64,000 nt of DNA from Alphaproteobacteria bacterium (GCA_965246755.1 OZ251979.1:9089-73088); one strand, 5' to 3'; positions 163-54,124 are shown, numbered from the stretch's first letter. Notes: a model not told the origin generated them from the letters alone. Numbers and translations are program-made.

Positions 163-399
163 TTGTCAAGACAAAGCCTGGCCGCCTTGCCAAACCGTAA
201 ACTGCCCATGCGCATTCGTTTTGACCCGGATTTAACCGCCACCTTGCGCAGTATTCCCGGTTATCAGACCAAGCTGAATGCTTTGGTGCGCGACGCCATT
301 AAAAAGCGCAGCAAGATATTATCTTGCCAAAACCCGCCAGGCCGATGCGGTATTGACCACCAGTACCAACAAGCTGATTACGCCGCTGGCGCGGATTGA
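163..399 (+). CDS. Small protein with BrnA-like antitoxin motif (possible TA remnant)
   Basis: The motif RIRFDPDLTATLRSIPGYQTKLNALVRDAI resembles the BrnA/COG3514 C-terminal signature (RLD..hl...k..G.GYQT.IN..LR). The ORF runs past the domain and no intact partner toxin is seen upstream. Confidence 0.25.
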   Translation: MSRQSLAALPNRKLPMRIRFDPDLTATLRSIPGYQTKLNALVRDAIKKRSKILSCQNPPGRCGIDHQYQQADYAAGAD

Positions 400-479
400 T
401 GACACTATGTTTGATGTTAAGGATGATTTGCTTAATAAATTACCAAACAAGTTAGCTATATTTTTAAAGGATTACTAAA

Positions 480-703
480 ATGATTTATCGCATGGCCACG
501 CTTGAAGATTATTTTATGCTAGCACATTTACGCTGGCAATTTCGCTTGGAAGAAAACGAAATACCGCATACAAATATAGAGGTTGGTCAAAAACTGAAGG
601 TTTAGAACTACTTGTCGTCTGGCCCAGCGCACAAAGTCGTAACATTTATGCGCGCTGCGGCTTTGTAGCTGAAAACGATATTTTAGAGTTGCTAAACTTT
701 TAG
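480..703 (+). pseudogene. GNAT-like acetyltransferase remnant split over two frames
   Basis: Two short ORFs in different frames, 480-605 (MIYRMATLEDYFMLAHLRW...) and 605-703 (...VVWPSAQSRNIYARCGFVAENDILELL, a GNAT C-terminal-like N..A..Y...GF motif). Together they are too short for an intact GNAT, which suggests an internal deletion plus a frameshift. Confidence 0.2.
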
Positions 704-707: not shown

Positions 708-2951
708 TTACGCCGCTTTATCCCGCGCAAACAGCGTTTGCCCCAATTGCTTGCCGGTACGCGCCATGATGTCGGCCATGAATTGCGTCATTTGCTGGTT
801 GGGCGCGGCCAGATCTTCCAAGCTGGCCGGCGCATCGTTTTTATCATCACCGAACAGGAATTTTGGGCTGAACACATCATCGTCGTCATCATCTTTTTCA
901 AGGCTCAGCAACGGCGGCGGTTTTTTACTGTCGCGCTTGACCTCGCCGCCCAACAGATTGTCGAGTGACAGGTCGTCATCCTCATCATCGTCGTCATCGC
1001 GGCCGGATTTTTTGAGCAGGCCCATTTGCTGCGCGACTTCGGCCACTGCCAGCGCGCTGGCCTTGGCAAAATCATTGTCAATTTCCCAGCCGCGCATGAA
1101 ACCGCTGTTCAGGGCATCAAACTCTTCAACCGAGGCGGTATTATCAACGGCGCGCGCCACCGTCCAGGCGGGATTGCGGAAATTTTTTAGCAGACCGTCC
1201 ACCGCGCTGTCGCGCAAAATCGTATCCACCGCATTGGGATTGACGCGTAGAAAGCGGTTGATGCGCATCGCCTTAACCTTTTTAGGGTTGGCGTAAAACA
1301 TATTCACTTCAATCGTGTCCGATTTAAAATTGATATGCGCCTGGCCTTCTTTTTGCGACCGCAATTCACCATAGGTCGCCTTTTTAACGTCACCGATTGC
1401 GGCGCTTTTTTGTTCACGGTAATTGCCAAATAAACTGTTTTGGTTAATTTCAAAATTACCGGCCTTGGAGATGGTCGCCATGCCGACGGTATTTTCAAAA
1501 AACTCGCGGGTTTGCGTCGGGTCCTCCAGCTTGCCGAAAATTTTCATATTGCAGTTGGCGGCAATCGAACGCGCTTCTTCCTTAACGCGTTTTTCCAAGG
1601 CCGGCAAATCCTGCGCTGCGAAGATTAATGAGAAGCCGAGCGAGCGCGCCTGTGCCGCCATCACCGCCATACCCTGGGCCGCATAATAACCGACCTCGTC
1701 AAACACGGTCACAAACGGCGAGCTGGAACGGGTGACTTTATTCTCAATCACTTTTTCCCAATCGCCTTCAACATCCGCGCCCAGCGTCGCGCCCATCATG
1801 CCCTTTAAATTCGCCGCGACAATTTTACCGAGATTGGCGGCTTCATCACCCGATTTTTCCAGCGCGGGGATCAAGACCAGCATCATGCGGCGGTTTAAAA
1901 CGATATCCATCATATCGATATCGGCCAATTGCGTTCTGAAAATATGCCCATATTCATCAGCCAATGATTGCAGCGAACGGGTAAATTGCATGGTCAGATA
2001 ACCATGCTGCTGACGCGGCACCGTCATATCCGCACCCGGGTTGCCGGGGCCGGGCGGCCGTTCATTACCGTCATCGTCAAAGCCGTCGTCGGAATAACCG
2101 GGCAGTGTGGTCAGATAACCTTTGATGCCTTTTTTAATGCGGTCGGGGATTGCCTTTTCACGGCTCATGCGGATGATGTCCGGCATATTGAGCGCATCGC
2201 GGATGACCTGAACGTCCAGCAATAACCCTTCGTGATCGCGCTTCCAGGTCAGCGCCGGCATTAAGGCACCCATCAATGATACCGCACGGCCTTTCCACAT
2301 CGCGGTATCGCCGCCGGCCTCATCCATCAGCCCCACCATCATGTTGGTGAGGTAAGAGGCCGAACCGTTGGAAAATGGATTCATGGTATTGGAGACGGTC
2401 GCCATGTCGCTGTTACCCGTCATGTAATTTAACACCATGATATCGTCATCGCGCCCGAAGCGTCGCGCCATCGCATAGATCGAGGCCCACAGATCGGTAT
2501 CCGCCTTACCATCGACATAGACGAAGCCAGAGCCCCAGCATAGCGCGTTTGACACCAGCGATTTCAGCCCTTCGGTTTTACCCGAACCGGTTGTGCCCAG
2601 ATATAAGATATGGGTCCGCGCGTCATTGTTGCTGATCCACAGCTCGCTTTTATTCTTGCGCTGGTTGCCAATGAACATGATACCATCGCCGCCCTTTTCC
2701 GATTTTGGCTTGCTGTATTCAACGTCAGCATGCCGCGTCAGCAGCCAAACCAGGTAATAGAGGCCAATAGCCAGAATAAGGTCGGCCACCACTGTAAAGC
2801 TGGGCTGAACCGCGACCAGAATAGTGCAAACGCCATAAAATACTGCCGCCACAATCGGCTGCGCGGCGCTTTCCTTGAATCGCGTCCACACCGGCCGCGT
2901 ATCCCGCAGCAGCATTTTGGCATTATATTCATATTTAACATCAACAGCCAT
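708..2951 (-). CDS. Type IV secretion coupling protein ATPase (VirD4/TraD/DotL-IcmO/TrbC family)
   Basis: 747 aa with two N-terminal TM helices. Walker A is LGTTGSGKTE followed by GSGFVYVDGKADTDL (compare VirD4 VVLDVKGENF), and Walker B is VTVFDEVG. A conserved AAQD motif follows, and the C-terminal tail is highly acidic (poly-D/E). The size and tail fit the long DotL/TrbC-type T4CPs. Confidence 0.7.
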   Translation of the reverse strand: MAVDVKYEYNAKMLLRDTRPVWTRFKESAAQPIVAAVFYGVCTILVAVQPSFTVVADLILAIGLYYLVWLLTRHADVEYSKPKSEKGGDGIMFIGNQRKNKSELWISNNDARTHILYLGTTGSGKTEGLKSLVSNALCWGSGFVYVDGKADTDLWASIYAMARRFGRDDDIMVLNYMTGNSDMATVSNTMNPFSNGSASYLTNMMVGLMDEAGGDTAMWKGRAVSLMGALMPALTWKRDHEGLLLDVQVIRDALNMPDIIRMSREKAIPDRIKKGIKGYLTTLPGYSDDGFDDDGNERPPGPGNPGADMTVPRQQHGYLTMQFTRSLQSLADEYGHIFRTQLADIDMMDIVLNRRMMLVLIPALEKSGDEAANLGKIVAANLKGMMGATLGADVEGDWEKVIENKVTRSSSPFVTVFDEVGYYAAQGMAVMAAQARSLGFSLIFAAQDLPALEKRVKEEARSIAANCNMKIFGKLEDPTQTREFFENTVGMATISKAGNFEINQNSLFGNYREQKSAAIGDVKKATYGELRSQKEGQAHINFKSDTIEVNMFYANPKKVKAMRINRFLRVNPNAVDTILRDSAVDGLLKNFRNPAWTVARAVDNTASVEEFDALNSGFMRGWEIDNDFAKASALAVAEVAQQMGLLKKSGRDDDDDEDDDLSLDNLLGGEVKRDSKKPPPLLSLEKDDDDDDVFSPKFLFGDDKNDAPASLEDLAAPNQQMTQFMADIMARTGKQLGQTLFARDKAA

Positions 2952-2960
2952 GTGTTTGTC

Positions 2961-3548
2961 TTACCGGGCGGGTTGCGGTTCGGGCAGATTAAGCGGTGGC
3001 GCCAAATATTGGTCGGCCGGTAACGGACGGCCGCCGGGAATTTCCGCCGGTTCGTCCGGCGCCGCCGGCGCTGGCGCGACCGCCACCGGCGCGGCAGCGG
3101 TTTGCGCCGGTAACTGCGCTGCTTGTTGGCTGCGTTGCAACCACAGTGCACGGAGCACAACGACAATTGCCAGCATCCCAATCAATACCAATAAACCATT
3201 GATGGCCAGCAAAGCCCATTTCAACGGTCCACGCACCCAACGCGGTCGCGCAATGCCACCGGCATATTTCGGCGCGCGCCGCGGCTGGAACAAAACATTG
3301 CGCACCGCCTGCAGCGCCGCGGTCGCGCTATCACGGTCATTAAACGTCGCAATGGTTTGCCAGTCCGTCTCGCCCGCTGACTGATAGATCAGGGCATGCA
3401 GATTATTATCCTGCGCCAAGGTAAAACTCAGCTGATTGATGTCGCTGATTTCGCGCCGCCACAGCACCGGCTGCGCGGCATTCGGCAGATCCAGCGTCAG
3501 GATATTGCGTTCATAGGCTGCCAACGGCTGGTGCATGGTATCGATCAT
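2961..3548 (-). CDS. Hypothetical membrane protein (one TM, Pro/Ala-rich C-terminus) in the T4CP operon
   Basis: 195-aa ORF tightly packed between the two T4SS-like genes (10-nt gaps). It has a central hydrophobic helix LLALLAINGLLVLIGMLAIVVVL and a proline-rich tail. Backbone-like GC. Confidence 0.45.
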   Translation of the reverse strand: MIDTMHQPLAAYERNILTLDLPNAAQPVLWRREISDINQLSFTLAQDNNLHALIYQSAGETDWQTIATFNDRDSATAALQAVRNVLFQPRRAPKYAGGIARPRWVRGPLKWALLAINGLLVLIGMLAIVVVLRALWLQRSQQAAQLPAQTAAAPVAVAPAPAAPDEPAEIPGGRPLPADQYLAPPLNLPEPQPAR

Positions 3549-3558
3549 CTCATTTTCT

Positions 3559-4749
3559 CTAGTTTAATTTACGCTGGCCACCGGCGGCGGGCTTGCCGCT
3601 GCGATGCAAACTCGGCAGTTCCATTTCACTTTCATCCATATAGTCTTGCAAGGCGTTGACTGCCGATTCAACTTTTGGCATCGGCAGTGCGCGTTTTAAC
3701 ATGCGCTCGGCATAAAAATGCGCAGTCGCGCCGGCTGCCTCTGCATGGAAAGTGCGGCGCCCAGAATTGTTGAGCGCATACCATAAAGGCCGGTCTTGTG
3801 CGCGCAGCCATAAAAACGCCGCCGGCGCTAGCACGCCACCCTGCGCCCGGCACCAGATGACGCAATCAATCATCGCGGTGACCACAAACGCATGCTTGCT
3901 TGCAATTTTGGCCAGCTCGCCGCCGGTTTTGGGATCGCGCAGGATGCGGCGGATTTTACTTTTAAGCGGGCTGGTAAGTTTGAGACCGCGCTTAGGCGTC
4001 CAGCAATCCGCAATTTCGCTCAGCAACTGGTCGGCATCATCACGCTTGCGCGCTCCTTTCAATGCAAAGGCGGCATATAATGCCTGCAGATGAAGGGGCA
4101 ATTTATCCGCGCCCTGCCAGCGCACCCCCAGCTGTTTGACAAAAGCGCGCGCGGCCGCATCGCGGTCGATTTGCTTGTCCTGTACCGCGATCTGGTTGAA
4201 CGCCAGCCATTCTTCGGGTGACAGCGCTTCAGCAAACATCGGCAAGGTATCGGGCACCGGCTGGCCCAGCGCACGTTGCACGGCAGTCGCCGGGTTGAAC
4301 CGCACGATGGGGGTGATGATTGGCCAGCTTTTGCTTTGCGCGACAATCAGATCCTCCAGCGTATAAATTGAAGTTAACTGGTGGCCGGAGGAGAATTTAT
4401 AGCTCAAGACGCCAAACAGCGCGAGCAAGCCTACCGCCGGCCAATGAAAAAACTGCGGTACTACTGTTGCGCTGATGGCGGCAATCTGTCCCCAGGACAG
4501 GTTTTGACCGTTGGAACCCTGCAACCAGACGATCAGCTCTTGCGGCGTCGTGCGCGTACCGCCGGGCATGACCACATCATGTGCGAACAGTTTGACGATG
4601 TGCAATTCGGCAATCCGCACCAGGCGAATACTATCAATAATTTGTGTATGAAAAAAATGCCAGATAACCCAGCCGATCGCCGCCAGCACCAGGATGACGA
4701 CAATCATCACCACTGCTGAATCATCGCCTTTACCGCCACCGCCCGACAT
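3559..4749 (-). CDS. Inner-membrane protein, DotM/IcmP/TrbA-like candidate partner of the T4CP
   Basis: 396 aa with two TM helices (about residues 15-32 and 95-118) followed by a large cytoplasmic domain, and it is the first gene of a three-gene operon ending in the T4CP. The topology and position match DotM/TrbA, but the assignment is by architecture and context only. Confidence 0.35.
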   Translation of the reverse strand: MSGGGGKGDDSAVVMIVVILVLAAIGWVIWHFFHTQIIDSIRLVRIAELHIVKLFAHDVVMPGGTRTTPQELIVWLQGSNGQNLSWGQIAAISATVVPQFFHWPAVGLLALFGVLSYKFSSGHQLTSIYTLEDLIVAQSKSWPIITPIVRFNPATAVQRALGQPVPDTLPMFAEALSPEEWLAFNQIAVQDKQIDRDAAARAFVKQLGVRWQGADKLPLHLQALYAAFALKGARKRDDADQLLSEIADCWTPKRGLKLTSPLKSKIRRILRDPKTGGELAKIASKHAFVVTAMIDCVIWCRAQGGVLAPAAFLWLRAQDRPLWYALNNSGRRTFHAEAAGATAHFYAERMLKRALPMPKVESAVNALQDYMDESEMELPSLHRSGKPAAGGQRKLN

Positions 4750-4838: not shown

Positions 4839-5168
4839 TTACCCATGCAAGGTTTCCAGCACCATTTTTGGATTGTGCTCAATAACCTTGAGCAACAACC
4901 GTGCAGAACCCTCCGGCTGGCGGCGCGCGGCTTCCCAATGACGGATGGCACTCAGCGAAAATCCAAAGCTGGTAAATTGTTCTTGGGTCATGCCCAGTTT
5001 GGCGCGAATGGCTTTAACATCCACGGCGTCCGGCACTTTTGGATAAAGATAAGTTTTAACGCGCGTTTTTTCGCCGCGCTGGTGCGCGGCATATTCGTCA
5101 AAACCGGCCAGAATATCGGCAGCTAACGGGCTAAAATTTTTCTGTTCGCCTGGTTTTTTGATCGCCAT
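4839..5168 (-). CDS. XRE-family HTH antitoxin (NadS/HigA-like, COG2944)
   Basis: 109 aa with ...LGMTQEQFTSFGFSLSAIRHWEAARRQPEGSARLLLKVI, the typical antitoxin partner of DUF1044 RelE-like toxins. It lies immediately downstream of the toxin gene. Confidence 0.7.
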   Translation of the reverse strand: MAIKKPGEQKNFSPLAADILAGFDEYAAHQRGEKTRVKTYLYPKVPDAVDVKAIRAKLGMTQEQFTSFGFSLSAIRHWEAARRQPEGSARLLLKVIEHNPKMVLETLHG

Positions 5169-5180: not shown

Positions 5181-5507
5181 TCAAAAGATCTGGACTGCTT
5201 GCGCCAAGGCGCGCTTGTCATCAGCTGTTAAATCATCCTGCTCGTTTTTGGCATATACTGTTAGCAATAAAATAAGTTCGCCTGCGACATGATAGTAATA
5301 AATGACCCGACACCCGCCGCGTTTACCGCGTCCGGCCAATGCCCAACGTACTTTACGCAAACCACCGGTGCCCGGGATGACCTTACCACTGTAAGAATGC
5401 GCAGCCAAAAAAGCGGACAGCGCATCAATTTCATTTTCAGTCAGCAGCTTCTTGGTGCGACGGCTAAAGATTGCCGTGCGTACAACCCGGATAAAGCCAC
5501 TTTTCAC
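5181..5507 (-). CDS. Type II toxin, RelE/ParE superfamily (DUF1044/COG4737, HigB-like)
   Basis: 108 aa with a family-typical core GKVIPGTGGLRKVRWALAGRGKRGGCRVIYYY...LLLTVYAKNEQDDLT. The toxin precedes the antitoxin, which is HigBA-type order. Confidence 0.7.
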   Translation of the reverse strand: MKSGFIRVVRTAIFSRRTKKLLTENEIDALSAFLAAHSYSGKVIPGTGGLRKVRWALAGRGKRGGCRVIYYYHVAGELILLLTVYAKNEQDDLTADDKRALAQAVQIF

Positions 5508-5547: not shown

Positions 5548-7515
5548 TTAATTCGCTTCTGCCAAATCCCCCGCCAAGGATTCCGGAAACGGTAGATCGC
5601 CCAAGGAGCCCTTGCGGGTGCCGCTGGATTTTTTCGGGCGCGGGTCTTCATCCAGCGTGCGGTCAATCGGTTTACCGTCGGCGATCAGTTTAATTTCATC
5701 GCCGGTTAGTGTTTCATATTCTAACAAAGCTTGGGCAATCGCTTCCAGCTGGTCACTGTGCGTTGCCAGTACATGCCGCGCGCGGGCCAGACCGTCTTCC
5801 ACAATCCGCCGCACTTCAATATCCACCTGGCGCGCGGTTTCATCCGCCATGCCCTGGCTTTGCGAGACCGAATGCCCCAAAAATACTTCGCGCTCCGGGC
5901 GGCCATAGGCAATCGGGCCCATCGTATCCGACATACCCCATTCGCAGACCATGCGCTGCGCCAGTTGCGTTGCCATCTGAATATCGGATGAGGCGCCGGA
6001 GGTCACCTTTTCCACGCCAAAGATCATCTCCTCAGCGACGCGGCCGCCCATCGCGACCGCCAAATCAGCCTTCAGCCGCGCAATTGAAATTGACAGGCGG
6101 TCGCCTTCCGGCAGCCGCATCACCATGCCGAGCGCGCGGCCGCGCGGGATAATCGTCGCTTTATGCACTGGGTCGGATTCCGGTTCATGGATCGCCACCA
6201 GCGCGTGCCCTGCCTCGTGATAGGCGGTCAGCTTTTTCTCATCATCTGACATCACCATGCTACGCCGTTCGGACCCCATCATGACTTTGTCCTTGGCTTC
6301 TTCCAAGTCGCGCATGCTGACGGTTTTTCTGTCGCGCCGCGCGGCGAGCAGCGCCGCCTCATTGATCAAATTGGCGAGATCCGCACCAGAGAAACCGGGC
6401 GTGCCGCGCGCGATGGTGCGCGCATTAACATCATCCGCCAGTGGCGTTTTACGCATATGCACTTTTAAAATTTTCTCACGCCCTGACACATCGGGATTGG
6501 GCACCACCACCTGACGATCGAACCGGCCGGGCCGCAGCAGCGCCGGATCCAGCACATCGGGACGATTGGTCGCGGCGATCAAGATCACACCTTCATTGGC
6601 CTCAAACCCGTCCATCTCAACCAGTAACTGGTTCAGCGTTTGCTCACGCTCATCATTACCGCCGCCCAGGCCGGCGCCGCGATGGCGCCCGACTGCATCG
6701 ATCTCATCAATAAAGATAATGCAGGGCGCGTTTTTCTTGCCCTGTTCAAACATATCGCGCACGCGGGACGCGCCGACGCCGACAAACATCTCGACAAAAT
6801 CCGAACCGGAAATGGTAAAAAACGGCACATTGGCCTCACCCGCGACTGAACGCGCGAGCAAAGTTTTACCAGTCCCCGGCGGGCCGACCAGCAACACGCC
6901 TTTCGGAATTTTACCGCCCAACCGTTGAAATTTAGGCGGGTCGCGTAAAAACTCTACGACCTCGACTAATTCCTGTTTGGCCTCATCAACCCCGGCGACA
7001 TCTTCAAAGGTCACCTTGCCGGTTTTTTCGGTCAGCATCTTGGCCTTGCTGCGGCCAAAGCCCATCGCGCCGCGCGCACCGCCATTCATCTGCCGCATGA
7101 AAAACACATAGATGCCGGCGATCAGCAGCGTCGGCAAAATAGTCGTGAACAACAGATTGGTGAAAAAGCTGGGCCGGTCCTCTGGCTGCGCGGTCAGTTT
7201 GACGCCAGCGGCGCGGATGCGCTCCACCAGTTGCGGATCGTTCGGCATATAGGTTGAAAATTTTTCGCCGCCTTTGGCAATACCGCTTAAAATATCGCCT
7301 TTAATCGTGACCTCTTCGACCTGCTTGTCCTCGATTTTTTTGAGGACATCCGTATAGGCGGCGGTATTGGCGCCGGCCTGGCGCTGCTGGTCCTGCCAGG
7401 CGCTGATGCAGATGGCAACAATGACGCCCAGCACAATCCAGCTGATGAGGTTGCGCATATTATGCGGCGGCGCATTACGGTTGGAATTATGCGGATTATT
7501 CGGTGGCGGTGCCAT
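5548..7515 (-). CDS. ftsH: ATP-dependent zinc metalloprotease FtsH
   Basis: 655 aa with an N-terminal TM region, AAA+ Walker [12 protein letters not shown] region, and zinc motif HEAGHALVA. Confidence 0.95.
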
Positions 7516-7594
7516 AGTTGGTCTTTCTATCGTTATCTAATAAATAGGCCACAAAGCATAAAAAGCAAGCCTGCAAGCGGTAAACTTGCCGCTC

Positions 7595-8560
7595 TTACTC
7601 GCGCGTGATAGTTAGCCGTCCCTGGCGATTTTTAATTTTGCAGCCGGCCAGCGTCGCGCCGCGAAAACCGGGCTGTTGCAACCGCTGTTGTAGCCCGCGC
7701 AGCTGGGCATGCCGGATATGCCGCACCTCAGGATAGACCGTTTGCAACAACACCGTCAGCGCGCGCAATTGGATTTCAAGCGGCAAGCCTTGCATGTCAG
7801 CAACCGGCAATGCGGCATAACTGTCAGGAACCAAGCGCGCCGCCCGCGCCAACATGTTTATAGTATATTTCTCTAATGCTTCTTCCGCCAAGGCCATGCG
7901 TGCAGCTAACAGCTGGGCACTGTGCGCCGTTAAACCTTCGCGCGCCAGTGTCGTCTGGCTCTCACGCAAGCGCGGCCGCGCATAATCACTGTTGTGATTG
8001 CTGGGATCTTCCAGCCATGGTTGTTGCAATGCCGCGCAGGTCGCCACACATTGCTGTTTTGAAAATGACAATAATGGTCTTAATAACTGCACATGCGGCA
8101 AAAAGCTGGTGGTTTGCATACCGATGAGACCGTTAACCCCGCTGCCCTTGCTAAACCGCAGCAACAGCGTTTCTAACTGGTCGTCGGCATGATGCGCCAC
8201 CGCCAGATGCAAAATATGTTGCTTGCGGCACCAGTTTTGCAACAAGTCATACCGCGCGGTGCGGGCAATCTCCAAAACCCGGTTGGTCGGTTTATCGCCG
8301 GTCCACATCAATATGTGATGTTCAATACCAAGTGTTTTGCACCAAGCCCTGACCTGCCGCGCCTCGCCTTTGGCGGCAGCGCGCAAACCGTGATCGACCG
8401 TCAATGCAATAGCCTTGCCGCCGTGCGGCTGCACCCAAGCATGCATTAGCCGCAGCAGCGCCATGCTATCCGCGCCGCCCGAGACTGCCACCGCCACCGT
8501 TGGCTGCGGTTCGAATGGCCTGCCAGACATCGCAGTATTAAAATCGGCAGCGGAAATCAT
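7595..8560 (-). CDS. tilS: tRNA(Ile)-lysidine synthetase
   Basis: PP-loop SGGADSMALL near the N-terminus, and the position immediately upstream of ftsH that is conserved in alphaproteobacteria. Confidence 0.85.
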   Translation of the reverse strand: MISAADFNTAMSGRPFEPQPTVAVAVSGGADSMALLRLMHAWVQPHGGKAIALTVDHGLRAAAKGEARQVRAWCKTLGIEHHILMWTGDKPTNRVLEIARTARYDLLQNWCRKQHILHLAVAHHADDQLETLLLRFSKGSGVNGLIGMQTTSFLPHVQLLRPLLSFSKQQCVATCAALQQPWLEDPSNHNSDYARPRLRESQTTLAREGLTAHSAQLLAARMALAEEALEKYTINMLARAARLVPDSYAALPVADMQGLPLEIQLRALTVLLQTVYPEVRHIRHAQLRGLQQRLQQPGFRGATLAGCKIKNRQGRLTITRE

Positions 8561-8604
8561 GTGATAAGCATAGAAAGTTTTTTAAACTCGCGATATAGAC
8601 GTTT

Positions 8605-9534
8605 ATGTCTCATCATCATTGCGATCACGCTCATCACCACGCTGGGCCCGGCCACAGCCATGCGCCGGCCAGTTTCGGGCGCGCCTTTGCCATCGGCATC
8701 ACGCTTAACACGCTGTTCGTCATTACCGAATTCATCGTGGGGCAAATCGCCCATTCCATCTCGTTAATTGCGGACGCCGGACACAATGCCGGCGATGTGC
8801 TGGCGCTGATTGTCGCCTGGGCTGCCACGGCGGCCGGCCGCGCCAGACCCACTGACCAGCGCAGTTATGGTTATAAAAGCACCTCCATCCTGGCCGCATT
8901 ATTCAATGCATTACTATTACTGGTCGCGGTTCTCGCTATCGGTTGGGAGGCAGCGCACCGCCTCATGCATCCCACGCCGGTCGCCGCGCCGGCCATGATG
9001 GTAACCGCCGCGATTGGCATTCTTATCAATGGCCTGACTGCCTGGCTGTTTATGCGCGGCCGCGACAATGACATCAACATTCGTAGCGCTTATCTGCATA
9101 TGGCAACCGATGCCTTAGTTTCGTTCGGTGTCGTCATTGGCGGCGCACTGGTCTGGTGCAGCGGTTACAATTGGATCGACCCGCTGCTGAGCCTCATCAT
9201 CGCCGGGATTATTGTCTGGAGCAGCTGGAAATTATTACGCGATGCATTGCATCTGGCCCTGCAAGGCACGCCACCGCATATTTCCGTGTCCGCCGTGCGC
9301 GATTATTTATTAAACTTGTCAGGTGTCTCTGGTTTGCATGATCTGCACATCTGGGCGATGAGCACGACTGACATTGCCATGACCGCGCATTTGACAGTGC
9401 CGGATGCCGTGCATAATGATGCGATCTTGGCACGTGCGGCGCCGGAATTACTGACGCAATTCGGCATTCATCATGCAACTTTGCAAATCGAACGCGACAT
9501 TACCTGTGCGCTTGCACCGGATGAAGTTGTTTAG
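8605..9534 (+). CDS. Cation diffusion facilitator family metal efflux transporter (CzcD/ZitB-like)
   Basis: His-rich N-terminus [19 protein letters not shown], six TM helices, and a C-terminal cytoplasmic domain typical of the CDF family. Confidence 0.8.
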
Positions 9535-16100: not shown

Positions 16101-16853
16101 TTATGTGACAGGCGCTGCCAGCGCTTTAATAATCGCCGTCGGGATTGCCGCCGGTCGCGCCGCCAAACTGATACAGGCCAGTTCAACCTTTAACCGCGCG
16201 CATAGCTGCCCGTAACAAGAGATATCCTGATCAAGCGTCAGCCGTGTTTTGGTCAGCGCAGCGACCTGTACCGTTACCGCCAGCAGGTCATCCAACCGCG
16301 CCGGTTTTCTGTAATCAATCTCGCAGCGGCGGACGATAAACAATATGGGTGGAACCGGCAGGCACACGGCAGCCTCTACCGCTGGGCGCATATTACCCGA
16401 TGCGCTGCCCTGCGCATGTTCTGCCAGGCTACCGGTTTTCGCAATGGGTGCAGTGACAGCCGATATATCAGTGGCGGTAGCCTGGTCTGCGCTAGGCAAG
16501 GCGGCGCTGACATTTAAGGGCGCCATGCTGCGTGGAGCGGCCATCATCGTTTTATGTGTTGGCGAATTTTCATCTGCCGACTGAGGCCAGTCATATCCGG
16601 CGGCATGGCCCGGTTGTGTGAACTCCGGCGCCAGCTCAGACTGACCAGCGCTCCGCGCACAGCCGGACTGGCTGAGCCCTTGTGACAAACCAGACTGGCT
16701 GAAACCCAGCCCGCGCAGCCATTCTGTCCGCGCCCGCTCGGCAAATTTCAGATAATTGGCATAATAAACAATCCCGCCGCCATCGGTGTCTTCCCAATAG
16801 ACGCGAGTTAAGTGGGTGAAGGCAATTCCGGTCGTGTTTTCTTTAACTGTCAT
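16101..16853 (-). CDS. ybgC: Tol-Pal-associated acyl-CoA thioesterase YbgC (4HBT hotdog) with a roughly 100-aa low-complexity insertion
   Basis: The N-terminus [36 protein letters not shown] and the C-terminus ([17 protein letters not shown]...) match YbgC. A Ser/Ala/Gln-rich insert ([11 protein letters not shown]...) makes it 250 aa against the usual 140. Confidence 0.7.
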
Positions 16854-16911: not shown

Positions 16912-19485
16912 ATGACCCAAAGTCCCCAGGAATTACCATTTGAAACTCCTCGCTCAGGCCCAAAAGCGCGGCCTGTGCGCCCTGCCAAAGCTGCGCGCCC
17001 TCCTTCAGCTGCACGTTCGGCTTTAAAATTTGCTTTTTCTCCTGAAATCGGCCGTAGTTTTGGAAGTATTAATTTTGCATGGACCACTTTTATAAATGTA
17101 ATTGTACAGTTGTTTGTTTCTGCCAAACTAATTAATAAACATGCCCTAGATAAACAAGAAAATATTAAACTTAGCCACGTAATTAGTCTTGCTTACCGTA
17201 ATCTAACGTGGAACAGACAGAATGTCCGACAAATAGTATTATTCTTTGGCGTGATGGGGTTTTTGTTATTTATGTTTTTAACGGTACTAACGCTTTTAAT
17301 GCAACTAATGACCGGCGTTGCTATGGCTCAAGGACCTAATCCATCCACAAATTCTGGTGATAATTTATTAAATTCTTTATTTAACCTTACTGATAATGAT
17401 ATTATTCCAAAGGCTTTAGGATCAATGTTGGCTGTCTATAGTCAAGGCATGCTTATTTTAGGTGGCATTATTTTATTATTTCTTATTGTATCTACTGTAA
17501 TGGAAACTGCCCATAGCGGTGTACCTTTTGGTAAGACCTTTAATCAAACTTGGACCCCAATCCGGCTAGTGTTTGCAATAGGATTGTTAATCCCTTTATC
17601 GAGTGGGCTTAATTCAGGACAATATATAGTTTTAAATGTAGCAAAATGGGGTTCTACGCTGGCTGGCGAAGCTTGGGGAAAATTTGTTGGTTATTCAGCC
17701 ATTCTACAAGGCGATCCTGGAACATTATGGACAGGGTCAGCACGTCAAACTGTAAACCAAATTATGGCAATGGAAACATGTCGCGTACGTAGTCTACAAG
17801 CGGGCAATAATATTAACATTGTTGACGCACCAGGGACAGCTAATAATGCTGGTCTGCAGCCGGGCAATACTTCTGTTGATCCTGATGCTGGCCTAACCTT
17901 ATCAGGCAATCGCGTGGTTTATGATGAAATTCAATATCGCGGCGACACGATAGGCAATCAAACCGGTTGCGGCACGGTGCGTTTTGCGCGACTACAAAGG
18001 CTACCATTTGCCAGCATTAGTGTTAATCCTAATGATTTTAAAATTGCTAACGCGGTCAATGCCATTTGGTCTGATACCGGTGAATATCTAATGCACGCGC
18101 GTTTTTCAATGTACCAAAATGCAGTGCCTATTGCTGCCAGAATTGCTGAAGAATATGCATCGCATCTCGATCCTTCGAATGCTCGCTACTTTAAGGAAAT
18201 GCCACCACATATCAAGCAAGATTATGAAAGGCTAGTCTCTACTTATTCTGACGCTATGGATATGCATGCTAAGCGTGCTATGGCGGCAATGCAACAACGA
18301 ATTGGTAAAAACCTTGAAACTGAAATGAACCAACTTGGCTGGATTGGCGCACCTGTGTGGCTACATAAAATAGCCCAATTAAATGCACAGCTGCAGTCAG
18401 AAGCGGCAACGCAACCAATGTTTATCAATGTTCCTGGTGTAAAAAACACTGCACCAGAGCAGAGCTCGGTTAAGATTACGGGCACAGCTAGTATTGGACC
18501 AGGCCAAGCACAAGATGATGTTAACAACTTTCTATCTGATACACCTGCTGGAGTAGTTGCACAAAAAGGCGAACAAATATTGCAGGATTGGATAGATAAT
18601 TTTGCTTCACGTATTGGTTGTCAAGACGGCGATAGCTGTGTCAGCAATTTTCAATTATACTCAAACAATCCTTTATCGGAGATTGCGCTTCTAGGGCAAA
18701 AACTTTTTTTATGGGGCACTATGGGTGTAAAAGCTTTAATATTCGCTGCAGCTATTAGTACAGTACCTTTAATTGGCAGTGCCATTTCTATTATTGTGCC
18801 AATTGCTTCTGTTTTAATATTGGGCTTAATTACCGCTGGAACATTGATGGGTTTTGTTGTTCCATTGCTACCCGTTATGCGGTTTATGGCAGGCATTTTG
18901 GGGTGGATCATGCTGGTTTTTCAAGCTGTCTTGGCTGTGCCCCTCGTTGCACTGGTTCATTTAAACAAAGAGGGCGAAGGATTAAGTGGCAAAGCCGGGG
19001 ACCGCGCATATCTTATGTTATTAGGTATAGTGGTTCGGCCTCTATTAATGACCTTAGGGCTAATTTGCGGTTTATTGTCTTTCAATTTAATTGTAAAAAT
19101 CGTTAATCTTTTATTTGTCCCAGCTCTATCAGCAACGTTTGCGTTAAATGATATGAGTTTATTTCATTTTATTGTAATGACTTTCATATATGCTGTATTT
19201 ATCTTTGCATTAGGAAATTCAGCTTTTAAAATGATTGATATTATTCCTGATCAGGTAATTGGCTGGATTGGCGCCAATCTTGGCAGCCAAGGTACGCAGA
19301 ATGATGCCGACCAAGTTGCCAAAACTGAAGCTTTCGCTGGGGCAGTTCTCATATCTAAAGGTGCTGAGCCATTGAGCAAGGCGGTGTCAGCTGTTGGTCA
19401 AACTGCTAACAAAAAAGTTGCAGAAAAATATAAAAAATATCTTGATAAAAAGGGGGGTGGTAGTGATGATACCGGTAATTTATAA
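16912..19485 (+). CDS. Large polytopic inner-membrane protein, T4SS DotA/TraY-like or VirB6-like architecture (AT-rich island gene 1)
   Basis: Two or three N-terminal TM helices, a hydrophilic domain of about 400 aa, five or six C-terminal TM helices, and a Lys-rich tail. The composition switches from GC-rich to AT-rich near 17060. The first internal ATG is at 17254, which gives 743 aa, so the real start probably lies between 17110 and 17254. Confidence 0.5.
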   Translation: MTQSPQELPFETPRSGPKARPVRPAKAARPPSAARSALKFAFSPEIGRSFGSINFAWTTFINVIVQLFVSAKLINKHALDKQENIKLSHVISLAYRNLTWNRQNVRQIVLFFGVMGFLLFMFLTVLTLLMQLMTGVAMAQGPNPSTNSGDNLLNSLFNLTDNDIIPKALGSMLAVYSQGMLILGGIILLFLIVSTVMETAHSGVPFGKTFNQTWTPIRLVFAIGLLIPLSSGLNSGQYIVLNVAKWGSTLAGEAWGKFVGYSAILQGDPGTLWTGSARQTVNQIMAMETCRVRSLQAGNNINIVDAPGTANNAGLQPGNTSVDPDAGLTLSGNRVVYDEIQYRGDTIGNQTGCGTVRFARLQRLPFASISVNPNDFKIANAVNAIWSDTGEYLMHARFSMYQNAVPIAARIAEEYASHLDPSNARYFKEMPPHIKQDYERLVSTYSDAMDMHAKRAMAAMQQRIGKNLETEMNQLGWIGAPVWLHKIAQLNAQLQSEAATQPMFINVPGVKNTAPEQSSVKITGTASIGPGQAQDDVNNFLSDTPAGVVAQKGEQILQDWIDNFASRIGCQDGDSCVSNFQLYSNNPLSEIALLGQKLFLWGTMGVKALIFAAAISTVPLIGSAISIIVPIASVLILGLITAGTLMGFVVPLLPVMRFMAGILGWIMLVFQAVLAVPLVALVHLNKEGEGLSGKAGDRAYLMLLGIVVRPLLMTLGLICGLLSFNLIVKIVNLLFVPALSATFALNDMSLFHFIVMTFIYAVFIFALGNSAFKMIDIIPDQVIGWIGANLGSQGTQNDADQVAKTEAFAGAVLISKGAEPLSKAVSAVGQTANKKVAEKYKKYLDKKGGGSDDTGNL

Positions 19486-19506: not shown

Positions 19507-21180
19507 ATGCTGTCTTTAAATAAAATGTGGGACTGGATTTTATCGCCCTGGCGTGAAGATGTTGCCAGTAACCTGGATGATATTTTTGAACCGAATAAAG
19601 ATCATGGTTTAGGGAGTGCAATTGTTCAGGGCTTTATGGCTTTGCGTAAAACTGGGGGTAAATCTTTATCACCGGTTATATTTAGGGCAAAAATAAAGTT
19701 TTGGATGTATTGTCCGCCCTTTCGGTCACGCCAGGATGCCGCCCAAATTGTTTTAGGTCCTGGGACGAAATCTGATCCTGTTCAAGGTACGACAACGGGT
19801 TGGGTATATGAATCTCCAACAGAAGGGGTTTATTGGACCGCCTCACCTAAAGATGCGCAAGCCACCCAACAAGCGGCTGTTTCTCGCGCTGTTAAACGTA
19901 AATATGACAAAGACCCATGGTCTCAAGGCTTAAATCCTGGTGGTAAAGGTAAATATGTACAGCAAGTTTCACTCTATTTCAAACAAAATGCTATTGCTGC
20001 CCATGGCGTAAATTATGGACGTCTGCAAAATGATCGCTCTCAATGGTGGACAGTCAACTATGCCCAAAATTACAGAAATCATAAATTGTTGCCATTTTAT
20101 GAAAAGGAAAAGGAACTAACCAAAAGGTTTGAAGGTGGTTACGCTATATATTATAATGTAGGCGCAGAAAATTTTGATCAATTTGAGCATGTTATTTTCG
20201 ATGGTATTTGCACATTATGTCCAATTGATGAAGAGCATGATCCAACACCACAAGCAAACGAAATTCGTGTTAAACGTGATATAGCATTCAATGGCGAAAC
20301 AATTAAAGCGGGTGAAACAGTCACAAGAGAGGTCGCACATAAGCTTTTTCGTGAAAAATTATCACGTAATGATAGGTATGATATTACGCTCGCAACAAAA
20401 GCTGCCACTGCAGTATTGTTTCAACAGTGGCGGCGGTGGGATGTCCGTGATCCGGGCTTTTTAAATCCAACAAAAGATGACAAGATAGCTGCTTTAAGTG
20501 GCATGCCTCATGATGATGCACTGTCAATCTTTAGCAACATGTTTGCTTTATCTCGTCAAGTTGGCGGACAAGGCAACTATGAGATGCGCAATAGCTGGAA
20601 TGGCTACGATGATACTGCAGCAGAAGTAATTTCTATTACTAGAAATAGTGTAACTCAAGATGGGCCTGTAATTGGAGGTGCTGATTTACACTATGCTCAG
20701 GTGATAGAATGCTATCGGCAAATCATGCTAATGCGCAATATGTGCCAAAAAGAAAATTTTCGAGATGTAATAGCCGAAGACATGGGAGAACCTAAAGATT
20801 TAAACAAGCTTGATCCTGAAATTCCTCAAAATGCAGCTATTCTTGATATTCGTGTTGCTTTCCAAAGCCTTATTCAAACACTTGCCCGAGATGGAGGCCA
20901 ATCACCAGCAGAAGCATTAAGAGATCTAAATTTAGCTCATCTAGGCGAAGAAACTCAAATTGAGGGTACGGATGTTAAAATTGGGCAGATCTTAAAATTT
21001 GCTTATCTGATATCTGATAAAAATGAAAATGGGGTTAAAAAATCCCCGGAATATCCGCCGGAACTAACAAAACGCTCTAATGCTGTACTTGGCCCTGAAA
21101 TTGTATCCAACTTAGGGAAAGCATTTCGTCGTCAGGTTATGAAAGAAAACACAGGCCCGACACCATTTTGGGGCGCTTAA
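19507..21180 (+). CDS. Hypothetical soluble protein (AT-rich island gene 2)
   Basis: 557-aa AT-rich ORF 21 nt after gene 1, with no TM helix and no recognised motif. Confidence 0.5.
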   Translation: MLSLNKMWDWILSPWREDVASNLDDIFEPNKDHGLGSAIVQGFMALRKTGGKSLSPVIFRAKIKFWMYCPPFRSRQDAAQIVLGPGTKSDPVQGTTTGWVYESPTEGVYWTASPKDAQATQQAAVSRAVKRKYDKDPWSQGLNPGGKGKYVQQVSLYFKQNAIAAHGVNYGRLQNDRSQWWTVNYAQNYRNHKLLPFYEKEKELTKRFEGGYAIYYNVGAENFDQFEHVIFDGICTLCPIDEEHDPTPQANEIRVKRDIAFNGETIKAGETVTREVAHKLFREKLSRNDRYDITLATKAATAVLFQQWRRWDVRDPGFLNPTKDDKIAALSGMPHDDALSIFSNMFALSRQVGGQGNYEMRNSWNGYDDTAAEVISITRNSVTQDGPVIGGADLHYAQVIECYRQIMLMRNMCQKENFRDVIAEDMGEPKDLNKLDPEIPQNAAILDIRVAFQSLIQTLARDGGQSPAEALRDLNLAHLGEETQIEGTDVKIGQILKFAYLISDKNENGVKKSPEYPPELTKRSNAVLGPEIVSNLGKAFRRQVMKENTGPTPFWGA

Positions 21181-21209
21181 TTCAACAAAATCAACTAAGG
21201 AGACAATTA

Positions 21210-22088
21210 ATGGGAAATTTTAGTTTAACAAGAAGTAAAGGCGGCAGGGCTATAGTTAAAGCACTGAAACTTGGCGCTTTAGGATTTGTAGCATGGCAAG
21301 GAAAAGGCTGTTGGGATTCCTATCATAGTGATCCAAATGATGCTCAATTAGGACGTGTGAATCCAGTTATCACAACACCTCCAGTGCCGCGTCAATCCAT
21401 TTTACCAAATTTTGAGCGTTCAAAAGAAAACTTTGCTAAAAATGCGCGCGATACTTATAAAGTTCCTGTTGAATATGACAAGAAAAATATTCTCTATGTT
21501 GGAAGTGGATTACCATCCGCAATAGGCGACAAGCCAATCTTAAATAGTAAGGATGAGGGTGACCTTATTCCTGTTGAACCGGCACAAACGCAGGCACTGG
21601 CGCAAGTTATTCAAAAGCATGAACAGCGCAAACAAAAACTTGGCACAAATGGACAGCTTTATATTGTCTTTTTACCGCGTGTAAAAGATGACAGTGGAAA
21701 TGAAATTAGGGATAAGGCGCATATTATTGGTTATGATGTTCCAAATGCCACCAAACCAACTTATGCAATAGATTTAGATACAGGATTTGTTTATTCTGAA
21801 GCAATAACTGAACGCGAACAAAGTCAGCAACTTCTCAAAAAACTTTTTGCGATGCCCAATCATCAGCCAGTTGATTTTTTTGCTTTAGAACGAGACATTA
21901 TGAATGAATCTTTAGATCATGCAAAACGCTATGGCACAAAAATTGGTGAAAAAACGGATGGTCATCCAGAATTAAAATACGGTGAAATTCGTTGGACTAG
22001 TCCTACCGCTGAAAAAAAATATGGTTTAGATGCTGAGGGTGATCTGCCGACGCCGCGTTCTCGTATAAACCGTGGACCTAATCCATAA
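21210..22088 (+). CDS. Hypothetical signal-anchored protein (AT-rich island gene 3)
   Basis: The ATG at 21210 follows a strong AAGGAG Shine-Dalgarno (the track ORF begins at 21168). It has an N-terminal TM anchor AIVKALKLGALGFVAW, and an intrinsic terminator follows it. Confidence 0.55.
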   Translation: MGNFSLTRSKGGRAIVKALKLGALGFVAWQGKGCWDSYHSDPNDAQLGRVNPVITTPPVPRQSILPNFERSKENFAKNARDTYKVPVEYDKKNILYVGSGLPSAIGDKPILNSKDEGDLIPVEPAQTQALAQVIQKHEQRKQKLGTNGQLYIVFLPRVKDDSGNEIRDKAHIIGYDVPNATKPTYAIDLDTGFVYSEAITEREQSQQLLKKLFAMPNHQPVDFFALERDIMNESLDHAKRYGTKIGEKTDGHPELKYGEIRWTSPTAEKKYGLDAEGDLPTPRSRINRGPNP

Positions 22089-24210: not shown

Positions 24211-25329
24211 ATGATCTCTTATATTCTCCGCCGCCTGCTGCTGATTGTCCCGACCCTGCTCGGCATCATGACGCTGAATTTCCTGATTGTGCAGGCGGCC
24301 CCCGGCGGCCCGGTCGAACAGATGATTGCGCGCGTCCAGGGCAATGCCGTGGATGCCACCTCACGCGTCGGCGGCGCGGCCTCCAGCGATGTATCGCCCA
24401 ACGCGATGAGCCAAAAGAATTTTGACAGCGCCAGTGCCGCCCCATCGAAGTATCGCGGCGCCCAGGGCCTCGACCCCGAATTTATCAAGGAGCTCGAGCA
24501 TCAGTTTGGCTTTGATAAGCCGCTGTGGGAACGCTATCTCATTATGCTTAAAAGCTATGCCACTTTTGATTTTGGCAAAAGCTATTTTCGCGACACGCCG
24601 GTTATTCAACTCGTCATGTCCAAACTGCCGGTGTCCATTTCACTGGGGCTGTGGACCACGCTGCTCGTCTATTCCATTTCTATCCCGCTTGGCATTCGCA
24701 AGGCGGTACGCGATGGCTCCCATTTTGATATCTGGACCAGCGGCATAATTTTCGTGATGCATGCCATCCCCAGTTTTCTGTTCGCAGTACTTCTGATCTT
24801 GCTGTTCGCGGGCGGGGAATATTTTGCGTGGTTTCCGCTGCGCGGGCTGGTGTCTGACAATTGGCACGATCTCGACTGGCCGCATAAAATCTTCGATTAT
24901 TTTTGGCATATCGCACTGCCGGTATTGGCGATGGTCGTGGGTGGTTTTGCGTCTCTTACCATGCTCACCAAAAATTCCTTCATCGATGAGCTGGGCAAGC
25001 AATATGTATTGACCGCGCGCGCCAAGGGCCTGTCGGAACAGCGTGTGCTGTATGGTCATGTCTTCCGCAATGCGATGCTGATTGTGATCGCCGGTTTTCC
25101 ATCCGCCTTTATCAGCATGCTGTTCACCGGCGCGGTGCTGATTGAAGTGATTTTTTCATTGGACGGGCTGGGGTTGCTGGGCTTTGAATCCGCAATGCAG
25201 CGCGATTATCCAGTAATGTTCGCAACGCTCTATATCTTCACGCTGATTGGACTTGTCATGAACCTTATTAGTGATGTGACTTATATGTTGATTGATCCGC
25301 GCATCGATTTCAACCAGCGGAGCGATTGA
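24211..25329 (+). CDS. ABC transporter permease (YejB-like, BPD_transp_1)
   Basis: 372 aa and about six TM helices. The N-terminus [19 protein letters not shown] is typical of DppB/YejB permeases. Confidence 0.8.
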
Positions 25330-25916
25330 TGGACATGATAAAAACTCTATTGCCACAACGCCCCAGAGGATGGAGCGAACATTATGTTTGCATCCTTTGG
25401 ATCATTAACTTTTTGATTGTCACAGTACTGCTAATAGCAAAAAATTTTCTTACTTTTCATACTTATATTTTTTCCGCCTTAAAACAACAAGCGGACTTCA
25501 ACCATATAATTTTCTCTGTTCTTACTATGATGGGAAGCTTGATTCTGCTTATCAAACCAAAAGTTTTTCTTCCCGTGGTCGCTGTCAACGTTTTAGCCAT
25601 GTTGCTTGCTAAATTTGGCGTGCTTATTGCGTTGTTTACAACTGTGTGGAGTGCGTTGTGGGGATTATATTACATTATTAAAAATATTATCATTAAATTT
25701 AATGACCCCTTGGAACAAAACATCAATCTTTACCGGCACATTTTCATATTGCTCTGTGCATTTACACTGTTGAACGGGCTTATCAATTATGACTTCGGCT
25801 TTAGCGGATTTAGTGAACAAACATTCTTCACAATTGGTGTCATGGTCAGCCATGTCATAACCATCGGCTGCGCTTTTTTCTTGGCACGCAAAATATTAAA
25901 AATGTCTCATGATTAA
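25326..25916 (+). CDS. AT-rich polytopic membrane protein inserted between the two permease genes
   Basis: 196 aa and about five TM helices. The ATG overlaps the yejB-like stop (ATGA), and the 3' end overlaps the yejE-like start by 8 nt. Its GC content is far below the flanking genes. Confidence 0.5.
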
Positions 25917-32338: not shown

Positions 32339-33409
32339 TCATCCGCGTGTTATAATTGCGCCTAAATCTTTGGCCATACGTGCTCTTATTTTATCTGCCT
32401 GCATATCCGAGTTTGCACCACCATAATTTTTAAAATTAGAAATTTCTTGCCAAGTTTTATTTTTCAATAAGAGGGAGTGTGCCTTTAACAACTGCTGAAT
32501 TTCATTAGGGTCAACGAGAGTGGTATCGCCATATAAGTATTCAAAAATAGTTTTAATTTCCTGCTTCTCCACATCGGTAAGCAAATTTTTATCGCCATAA
32601 ATCATAATAACATCTTGTTTCATTGCGAGTTGCGGCATTGTCAATTCAAGCAATAATGACCTATCTTTAAAAGGATTAGGCCTGTTAATTTCGTGTGCCA
32701 AAGAATGCAAGACGGTTTGGATATAATCATCTGAGCAGCCATGCGTTTCACAACTGTTCTTTATAATATCGTATGCAGTTAACTGCAGCTTTCGCTTTTC
32801 TGCTATTTTTTCATATCGTGCGATAGCTAACAGGCTGTCGGCTGCATAAAATTCGCCATCCACATCCAGTTGTTTTCGTCTTTTTAAAAAGAATTGTTTT
32901 ATCTTCGTTAGCGCATTTTGAAATTCTGGTTTTTTTGCTTGTTCTGACTTAAGGTTAAATAGTTTTTCTGGATCAATAATTACGTCAGATGGGTCGCAAG
33001 CATAACAATTTTGCGGCACATAATTTTTTTCGTTTAGAAATTCAGCAAAAGTATCTAACACAGCCAAATGATTTTGGTCACAGTCAAAGCATGATTTAAT
33101 CGTAATAAGACTGTTGGAAGTTTGCACCAAATCAAATTTCAAATCGCGTTGCTTCAACTTAATAACCAGCGTGTAAAATCCATTATCTTCTTCAGAACTG
33201 ATAAAACCATTTCCCGACTGATAGGCGTCAAACAAAAAATGCCGCAACAAGCCTTCGGGTAGGGTATTTTTGTCTGAGGTGTAAAACTCGCCCTGTGGCA
33301 AAGGTTTTGAATTATCGGCGTTATTTGAACATAATATGCATTGCGCAAAGGCGTTTGGCATTTGCCCAAAAAGTAAAATTATTAATATGAAAAAGACTCT
33401 TTTCATCAA
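32339..33409 (-). CDS. AT-rich secreted hypothetical protein (signal peptide, Cys-rich N-region)
   Basis: 356 aa with the signal peptide MMKRVFFILIILLFGQMPNAFA. GC is far below the backbone. The start overlaps the lpdA stop (ATGA), which implies translational coupling. Confidence 0.55.
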   Translation of the reverse strand: MMKRVFFILIILLFGQMPNAFAQCILCSNNADNSKPLPQGEFYTSDKNTLPEGLLRHFLFDAYQSGNGFISSEEDNGFYTLVIKLKQRDLKFDLVQTSNSLITIKSCFDCDQNHLAVLDTFAEFLNEKNYVPQNCYACDPSDVIIDPEKLFNLKSEQAKKPEFQNALTKIKQFFLKRRKQLDVDGEFYAADSLLAIARYEKIAEKRKLQLTAYDIIKNSCETHGCSDDYIQTVLHSLAHEINRPNPFKDRSLLLELTMPQLAMKQDVIMIYGDKNLLTDVEKQEIKTIFEYLYGDTTLVDPNEIQQLLKAHSLLLKNKTWQEISNFKNYGGANSDMQADKIRARMAKDLGAIITRG

Positions 33410-41857: not shown

Positions 41858-41963
41858 AACAAAACTCCTGATAATAAGATGGTTTTGAAACACATGCGGT
41901 TAAAATGCAAGCGTGATATACATCCCGACTTCCCAACCAGAGCAACAACGCGTAAAAGACATT

Positions 41964-42332: not shown

Positions 42333-42371
42333 TTTGATTATTTTAAGCGCTTAATAGCTATCAATTATTTA

Positions 42372-44113: not shown

Positions 44114-44114
44114 C

Positions 44115-52798: not shown

Positions 52799-54124
<1,326 letters not shown>

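Follow-up and report, generated by a model that had tools for sequence, protein, structure and literature searches.

In this study, we examined a 64,000-nucleotide stretch of DNA from an Alphaproteobacteria bacterium (GCA_965246755.1 OZ251979.1:9089-73088), hereafter the window, and all coordinates for this genome are given as window positions. Close to its beginning lie three minus-strand genes, here called the trio: dotM/icmP, a gene for a membrane protein that we designate X, and dotL/icmO, encoding proteins of 396, 195 and 747 amino acids (aa), respectively. A preliminary description of the same DNA had presented them as a stand-alone operon for the coupling protein of a type IV secretion system (T4SS) and two membrane partners, and the three open reading frames (ORFs) were indeed found at the claimed positions, on the minus strand and tightly packed. 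The intergenic gaps are only 10 bp (dotM-X) and 9 bp (X-dotL), which fits a single transcript for the trio, and in several relatives the longest ORFs of the three genes overlap by 4 bp.

Proteins encoded by the trio

The 747-aa protein is a bona fide type IV coupling protein, as had been proposed. It exceeds the Pfam cut-offs of TraG-D_C (39.4 bits, cut-off 22), TrwB_AAD_bind (27.5 bits, cut-off 20.5) and T4SS-DNA_transf (21 bits, cut-off 20.1), and its sole match among solved structures is Legionella pneumophila IcmO/DotL (6sz9_A; 492.9 bits, E = 1e-146), with query residues 3-580 aligned to residues 5-600 of the chain. An FtsK/SpoIIIE identity was rejected, as the FtsK_SpoIIIE score of 18.7 lies below the Pfam threshold of 24. 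The two transmembrane (TM) helices and the Walker A and B motifs noted previously are also present: a Kyte-Doolittle scan places two hydrophobic segments near the N-terminus (residues ~30-48 and 45-63), and a 25-sequence alignment of the DotL family shows no variation in Walker A (G119-T126, GTTGSGKT) or Walker B (F417, D418 and E419). A homologue search with this protein yielded thousands of proteins with 50-72% identity, some of them already named IcmO by JGI or NCBI. Its identity is 43% to a Dot/Icm copy of Piscirickettsia versus 28-32% to TrbC of IncI and IncM plasmids. The best NCBIfam match is TrbC_conju (IncI TrbC, NF041447), with 394 bits versus an equivalog cut-off of 800.

Beyond the ATPase domain, DotL carries an extension of about 170 residues (~580-747), in which 36 D/E stand against 20 K/R in the last 170 positions. 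The acidic tail itself was thus correctly described. Its proposed resemblance to the tails of adaptor-recruiting DotL/TrbC-type coupling proteins appears to be positional only, with no sequence similarity detected to the adaptor-binding tail of Legionella DotL: the extension is weakly conserved even within the family, and a search of it against PDB sequences gave no match even at E <= 10. C-terminal tails of the DotL kind diverge fast.

The 396-aa protein had been called DotM/TrbA-like from its topology and position, and this was borne out by profile searches. Pfam DotM_C (PF23127) matches residues 198-368 with 167.6 bits (cut-off 27, E = 4e-49), covering 170 of 172 model positions, and NCBIfam NF033890 (DotM_IcmP_IVB) aligns over model positions 4-350 of 356 with 208.8 bits, under its cut-off of 230. 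Among solved structures, 6exb and 6sz9_B match with E-values from 1e-22 to 1e-31, the best being L. pneumophila DotM 6sz9_B (E = 1e-31 over residues 8-373). Judged by these alignments, the protein is a full-length but diverged member of the DotM/IcmP family. In Legionella DotM, the basic residues R196/R197, R217 and R314/R315 bind Glu-rich signals (PMC5802825). When the alignment was read by eye, two of these arginines were kept in the window protein (the conserved R314 as R320, and R197 as R196), R217 was replaced by lysine (K216), and R196 and R315 were not kept (D195 and P321, respectively).

Protein X had been described as a single-TM, proline-rich protein, and both features were found. 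Searches of Pfam, NCBIfam and PDB sequences gave no match, either with X alone or across 74 members of its family. The family is large: an exhaustive profile search, with hits clustered at 50% identity, yielded 816 clusters at E <= 1e-3 and 467 at E <= 1e-10, compared with only seven proteins in an earlier word-index search. Homologues among the 150 matches listed are 111-227 aa long, and identity across the family is only ~20-25%, indicating a fast-evolving protein.

An AlphaFold2 model of X built with 73 sequences reached a mean predicted local distance difference test (pLDDT) score of 82. Six strands and a helix are predicted within residues 9-87, with pLDDT of 93-97 in 10-residue blocks over positions 11-80, followed by a long helix at 106-143 with a hydrophobic core at 113-131. 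The best PDB matches in Foldseek were the CCM2 PTB domain, the FAK FERM F3 domain, the X11 PTB domain and a bacterial PH domain, all with weak scores (probability up to 0.97, E >= 0.06, TM-score 0.24-0.38); no secretion-system subunit was present among the Foldseek matches listed. On the basis of this model, the N-terminal domain may tentatively be called PH/PTB-like. A strongly conserved sequence feature of X lies at the other end of the protein, where the motif G173-x-P175-x-x-A178-D179-x-x-L182 is 89-99% conserved. The family ending can be written as G-V-P-[LVM]-[PS]-A-D-[DEQ]-h-L; it follows a variable, often proline-rich linker, and its distance to the C-terminus is ~3 residues for most members and 13 residues for the window protein. 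Since basic residues precede the helix, the positive-inside rule would place the N-terminal domain in the cytoplasm and the C-terminal peptide in the periplasm.

Several known proteins were considered as counterparts of X and rejected. TrbB of IncI plasmids is excluded by the lack of any cysteine in X, by the lack of a thioredoxin Pfam match in all 74 family members (0/74) and by a profile E-value of 0.55. Small ORFs also separate the DotL and DotM genes of Acetobacter and Piscirickettsia plasmids; these gave no match to the X profile. DotN, IcmS, IcmW, LvgA, DotY and DotZ were rejected as well, as X matched no T4SS subunit in PDB and no NCBIfam model, and none of these proteins was found among the Foldseek matches listed.

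Gene order and composition

To place the trio in a wider context, we scanned species-representative genomes, which gave 395 DotL relatives, and examined the best 80 of these 395 loci. They belong to Micavibrio, including a complete M. aeruginosavorus chromosome, and to allied alphaproteobacterial metagenome-assembled genomes. DotM is encoded upstream of DotL in ~76 of the 80 loci, and in ~73 an ORF of ~165-205 aa occupies the position between dotM and dotL; these ORFs, homologous to X, form one cluster.

The flanks of the trio differ between lineages. In the closest relative found by the genome scan (DotL 65% identical, on a 1.79-Mb contig), it sits among CobT, SLT, dut, GNAT, trmB and glmU genes, and in another relative it lies between PCMT and dnaX. 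A third one (L158, DotL 61% identical) has the order tilS-ftsH-dotM-X-dotL, which is the synteny of the window minus a toxin-antitoxin pair. In at least 45 Micavibrio-type loci, the trio adjoins ORFs that were read by eye as argS-gyrB-recF-dnaN-dnaA. Because the surroundings change while the trio persists, its stand-alone position is best seen as that of a conserved and repeatedly relocated module, and not as an accident of this genome. In close relatives, too, the trio is isolated between housekeeping genes. Two further observations concern the Micavibrio-type arrangement. In the M. aeruginosavorus HCB189 chromosome (L022, 8007-21958) and the similar loci, dotM-X-dotL and the argS-gyrB-recF-dnaN-dnaA-like ORFs are found side by side at the start of the chromosome record, and a conserved, unannotated ORF of ~260 aa comes next.

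These data suggest that X is a conserved partner of DotM and DotL from a family undescribed in databases, and probably a lineage-specific third subunit of the coupling complex, in which it would bind DotL or DotM. It could also be an unrelated small membrane protein riding in the operon, such as a regulator, an assembly factor or an immunity-like protein. The fast sequence change of X and the lack of a counterpart in the solved Legionella complex, by either sequence or Foldseek, would agree with a passenger. Such a role is nonetheless unlikely given that X is fixed between dotM and dotL whatever the flanks, that the spacing is tight or overlapping, and that conserved features are predicted on both sides of the membrane.

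Only in seven loci (six GTDB loci and L082) does the trio directly follow icmB and icmJ/dotN. An icmG/dotF-like gene was found further upstream in four of the seven and an icmE/dotG-like gene in two, and the 1008-aa protein of these linked loci has been named IcmB by both NCBI and JGI. In addition, MacSyFinder detected the pT4SSi type in seven marine Micavibrionales genomes, a result only listed in passing (Needham et al., 2022; PMC9418006). Membership of the trio in a larger machine is supported indirectly, both by the seven icmJ-icmB-linked relatives and by the presence of pT4SSi in Micavibrionales. The 2011 genome paper of M. aeruginosavorus ARL-13 stated that evidence for type III and type IV secretion was lacking (PMC3189940), and no further papers linking Micavibrio with Icm genes were found in the literature searched. 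As a side observation, L082 contains three tandem paralogous ORFs of ~137-138 aa (7517-9144), which are preceded by a TraQ-like gene on one side and border icmJ on the other, ahead of icmB-dotM-X-dotL; other relatives have a single copy (129 aa in L042), and none of these ORFs matched a family.

The G+C content at third codon positions (GC3) of the trio is 0.635-0.663, compared with 0.666 for ftsH, 0.626 for tolB and 0.638 for nuoG. The codon composition of the trio is native and indicates long residence in the chromosome. We read every ORF of at least 110 aa in the window and scanned the family-less ones with profiles; no relaxase, nikA, integrase or tRNA gene was present in the window. These results bear on the possibility that the trio couples DNA, as the counterpart of trbA-trbB-trbC in an integrated IncI-like (MPF_I) conjugative element. 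Its gene order does mirror trbA-trbB-trbC of IncI and IncM plasmids, TrbC_conju is the best NCBIfam match of the 747-aa protein, and an alphaproteobacterial MPF_I plasmid has, in the same position, an ORF of ~200 aa whose sequence, read by eye, combines a hydrophobic stretch with a Pro/Gly-rich tail. However, such a conjugative role is highly improbable: in addition to the lack of mobility genes in the window, the composition is native and the chromosomal synteny conserved, the TrbC score is far under its cut-off, DotL is closer to the Legionella and Piscirickettsia proteins than to plasmid TrbC, and X differs from both TrbB and the Acetobacter middle ORF as detailed above. Native GC3, the absence of relaxase and integrase genes from the window and the closer similarity of DotL to Dot/Icm proteins together make an old chromosomal system of the effector type more plausible than an integrated conjugative element.

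Flanking genes, dotA and other features of the window

The flanks of the trio are as described before, with a toxin-antitoxin pair and ftsH on one side and a decayed GNAT remnant, recognized from its translation only, on the other (Table 1). The toxin-antitoxin pair has an intermediate GC3 (0.49-0.53 versus 0.64 in flanking genes) and is missing from the same site in L158; since the latter has the same synteny without the pair, the pair is a recent insertion between ftsH and dotM. Downstream of dotL, the neighbourhood is limited to the 707 bp that remain before the window edge, and these contain decayed fragments only. In the closest relative, a GNAT gene that is still intact (238 aa; L081, 13016-13732) lies two genes past dotL. 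Promoter and terminator scans gave results at chance level, and no tRNA or Rfam feature was found in the window.

Table 1. Genes and remnants around the trio and around dotA (window positions)
Feature	Position	Strand	Description
BrnA-like antitoxin fragment	163-399		decayed; translation read by eye only
GNAT-like remnant	479-703		in two frames (frameshift or deletion), shortened; translation read by eye only
dotL/icmO	708-2951	minus	747 aa, type IVB coupling ATPase with acidic C-terminal extension (~580-747)
X	2961-3548	minus	195 aa, single-pass membrane protein of undescribed family, between dotM and dotL
dotM/icmP	3559-4749	minus	396 aa, membrane subunit of coupling complex, first gene of the trio
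Helix-turn-helix (HTH) antitoxin	4839-5168	minus	NCBIfam NadS/MqsA-family HTH matches; neighbour outside the system
RelE-type toxin	5181-5507	minus	Pfam RelE PF06296 at 7e-08; neighbour outside the system
ftsH	5548-7515	minus	upstream of the toxin-antitoxin pair
tilS	7595-8560	minus	upstream of ftsH
dotA	16912-19485	plus	857 aa as longest ORF; polytopic membrane protein of DotA/TraY family (TIGR04346)
Family-less ORF	19507-21180	plus	557 aa, directly after dotA; GC3 0.285
Family-less ORF	21168-22088	plus	306 aa, same low-GC block; GC3 0.238

The preliminary description had stated that no core or relaxase gene is near the trio. Relaxase and core-complex genes are indeed absent from the window, but a DotA/TraY gene located ~12 kb from the trio had been missed. 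Its product scores 288.9 bits with TIGR04346 (DotA_TraY, cut-off 100) and 163 with the equivalog model NF033886 (cut-off 500), matches L. pneumophila DotA (9ngy) at E = 4e-23 and has nine hydrophobic segments. Accordingly, the claim that only the coupling complex is encoded here, as in organisms with scattered T4SS genes, needs amendment: the trio does stand alone, but the window holds a second type IVB gene, which itself fits a scattered system.

The dotA gene (GC 0.41, GC3 0.305) belongs to a block of ~5.1 kb with a G+C content (GC) of 0.39-0.41 and GC3 of 0.24-0.31 versus ~0.64 in neighbouring genes. The block has sharp edges near 17050 and 22130, with ybgC (tol-pal cluster) on one side and a yejA-like gene on the other. 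It looks horizontally acquired, although neither flanking repeats nor a donor were found. The two ORFs that follow dotA matched nothing in Pfam or NCBIfam, and none of 72 metagenome DotA loci had a homologue of either of them beside DotA; they are possibly cargo or accessory genes. DotA is also highly divergent, being 24% identical to plasmid DotA/TraY proteins and 21-25% identical to metagenome DotAs over long alignments, with a best short segment of ~44% over 126 residues. The metagenome search returned nothing with the single protein and only distant DotAs with a 3-sequence alignment. DotA may be a compositionally odd gene of the native system or a separately acquired xenologue, and because of its deviant composition its link to the trio is uncertain. 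The adjacent tol-pal-associated thioesterase YbgC (16101-16853) has 250 aa instead of the usual ~130. Family models match two separate stretches of it (residues 12-57 and ~170-245), which indicates a low-complexity insertion of ~110 aa in the middle of the protein.

Other features of the window lie further from the trio. By reading of translations, the nuo genes are in their usual order (nuoA at 41913, nuoB at 43538, nuoC at 44115, nuoD at 47238, nuoE at 49849, nuoF at 52799 and nuoG at 58510), and within this region (41913-60564) unrelated genes break almost every junction. The interrupting genes include a 353-aa ORFan, a YefM/YoeB-like pair, TerC-like, HAD-like, inositol-monophosphatase-like and GNAT-like genes, a photolyase-related gene, a DUF262-like gene, rpe and a heparinase-like gene. 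Low-GC ORFs (GC 0.33-0.43) occur between or inside housekeeping operons at 25326-25916, 32339-33409, 38838-39716, 46254-47123 and 54220-56013, one of them being a 196-aa membrane ORF inside an oligopeptide-type ABC transporter operon. When these ORFs, except 54220-56013, were scanned, most had no Pfam or NCBIfam family and one was HAD-like; no obvious Glu-rich C-terminus was seen among them. These ORFs may represent acquired cargo or substrates for secretion. Additional toxin-antitoxin material was recognized by eye only, including a PIN/VapC-like ORF (39795-40202), the YefM/YoeB-like pair (44775-45303), which sits between nuoC and the TerC-like gene, and a DinJ/RelB-like antitoxin ORF (61500-61697).

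A probable dispersed secretion system and its known counterparts

Overall, the trio is likely, with a probability that we put at about 0.75, to encode the inner-membrane coupling module of a Dot/Icm-type (type IVB) system for protein secretion, with its genes dispersed around the chromosome. The module would be active, and its substrates would be proteins rather than DNA.

Several observations weigh against this interpretation. No gene for IcmB/DotO, DotB, DotC/D/H/G/F or IcmJ was found in the window, and tblastn with DotG, DotF, TraQ-like, IcmJ and IcmB proteins of relatives detected nothing else in it. When IcmB of relatives was used as query, an IcmB of this genome was absent among the 120 matches listed. 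Apart from the trio, dotA is the sole type IVB gene of the window; it is foreign-looking in composition and highly divergent and may not be the cognate partner of the trio. DotL, DotM and DotA all score below their curated equivalog cut-offs, the tail of DotL has no detectable similarity to the IcmSW/LvgA-binding region of Legionella DotL, the PH/PTB label for X is not statistically significant, and the promoter scan did not rise above chance.

An alternative is an orphan remnant, a trio left as a relic, or with another membrane-ATPase role, after the rest of the type IVB system was lost. In its favour, there is no other type IVB gene of native composition in 64 kb, the genome is small (1.93-Mb contig), and gene order looks rearranged, with interrupted nuo genes and several decayed small genes. 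We consider this improbable, as the three ORFs are intact with invariant catalytic motifs, their codon composition is fully native without any sign of decay, and the same stand-alone layout is conserved in a broad clade where icmB and further such genes are present.

If the trio is the coupling module of a dispersed type IVB system, its mode of action may be sketched by analogy with the Legionella complex. DotL would be anchored by its two N-terminal helices, and its ATPase would take substrates and hand them to the translocon. DotM would bind DotL and present its cytoplasmic surface to substrate signals. X, made in step with DotM and DotL from one transcript, would expose its beta-rich domain to the cytoplasm beside them and cross the membrane with one helix, so that the GVPxxADxxL peptide would be in the periplasm and could dock on another part of the machine.

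Micavibrio is an obligate epibiotic predator of bacteria, and to our knowledge Dot/Icm systems have been studied almost only in Legionella and Coxiella, where effectors are injected into eukaryotic cells. A more far-reaching hypothesis is that X is an obligatory type IVB subunit across a large alphaproteobacterial radiation including this predator, where it links DotL and DotM to the periplasmic machine through GVPxxADxxL, and that the dispersed system is an injection device for prey or hosts, the first type IVB system aimed at bacteria. This combined proposal is speculative and, in our view, more doubtful than the identification of the module itself. The coupling proteins are new members of a known family; the new part is the X family and the conserved stand-alone layout. 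The Dot/Icm coupling proteins found here are old, native chromosomal genes in an alphaproteobacterial clade with small genomes that includes epibiotic predators. Should X be a true subunit, it would offer a new handle on the communication between the cytoplasmic coupling complex and the envelope-spanning channel, a question still open for type IVB systems, and an active system in Micavibrio-like bacteria would be a testable candidate for prey attack. With at least 816 clusters at 50% identity, the X family merits its own annotation model.

Among known systems, the Dot/Icm coupling complex of Legionella is similar in that DotL and DotM are homologous over their full core lengths, the genes are chromosomal and no relaxase is nearby. 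DotL likewise has an N-terminal membrane anchor, Walker A and B motifs and a C-terminal extension after the ATPase domain, and DotM keeps the conserved arginine R314 (as R320). The icmP and icmO genes of Legionella lie side by side without an intervening gene, inside a long cluster from icmT to icmB. In contrast, a 195-aa membrane protein is encoded between dotM and dotL here, the trio is apart from other genes, and DotN, IcmS and IcmW were not found in the window. A dispersed arrangement is also known from the Rickettsiales rvh system (VirB/D4, type IVA), in which secretion genes are scattered among housekeeping genes of a small alphaproteobacterial genome. The trio resembles it in this chromosomal dispersal among housekeeping genes, but rvh is type IVA, not IVB, and has no counterpart of DotM or X. 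The pT4SSi of marine Micavibrionales shares the DotL family and the clade, and public annotation names IcmO and IcmB; that study (PMC9418006) describes neither the layout of the genes nor the dispersed trio nor X and its family.

The closest parallel in gene order is trbA-trbB-trbC of IncI1 (R64) and IncM (pCTX-M3) plasmids, with a DotM-like gene, a middle gene and a DotL-like ATPase gene. However, plasmid TrbB is thioredoxin-like and ~340-356 aa long, compared with 195 aa and no cysteine in X, and on an IncI plasmid trbC is directly followed by nikB (relaxase) and nikA, which have no equivalent in the window. A Piscirickettsia salmonis plasmid (L161, 3947-7848) has the order DotL-ORF-DotM, with a GD-repeat ORF of 174 aa and no obvious TM segment, and on an Acetobacter ascendens plasmid (L159, 2164-6289) the middle position is taken by an unlisted ORF of 203 aa that has a hydrophobic stretch and ends in a Pro/Gly-rich tail. 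A middle gene is thus a recurring feature of I-type coupling operons, and by profile comparison the X family is a new one, distinct from the other middle genes.

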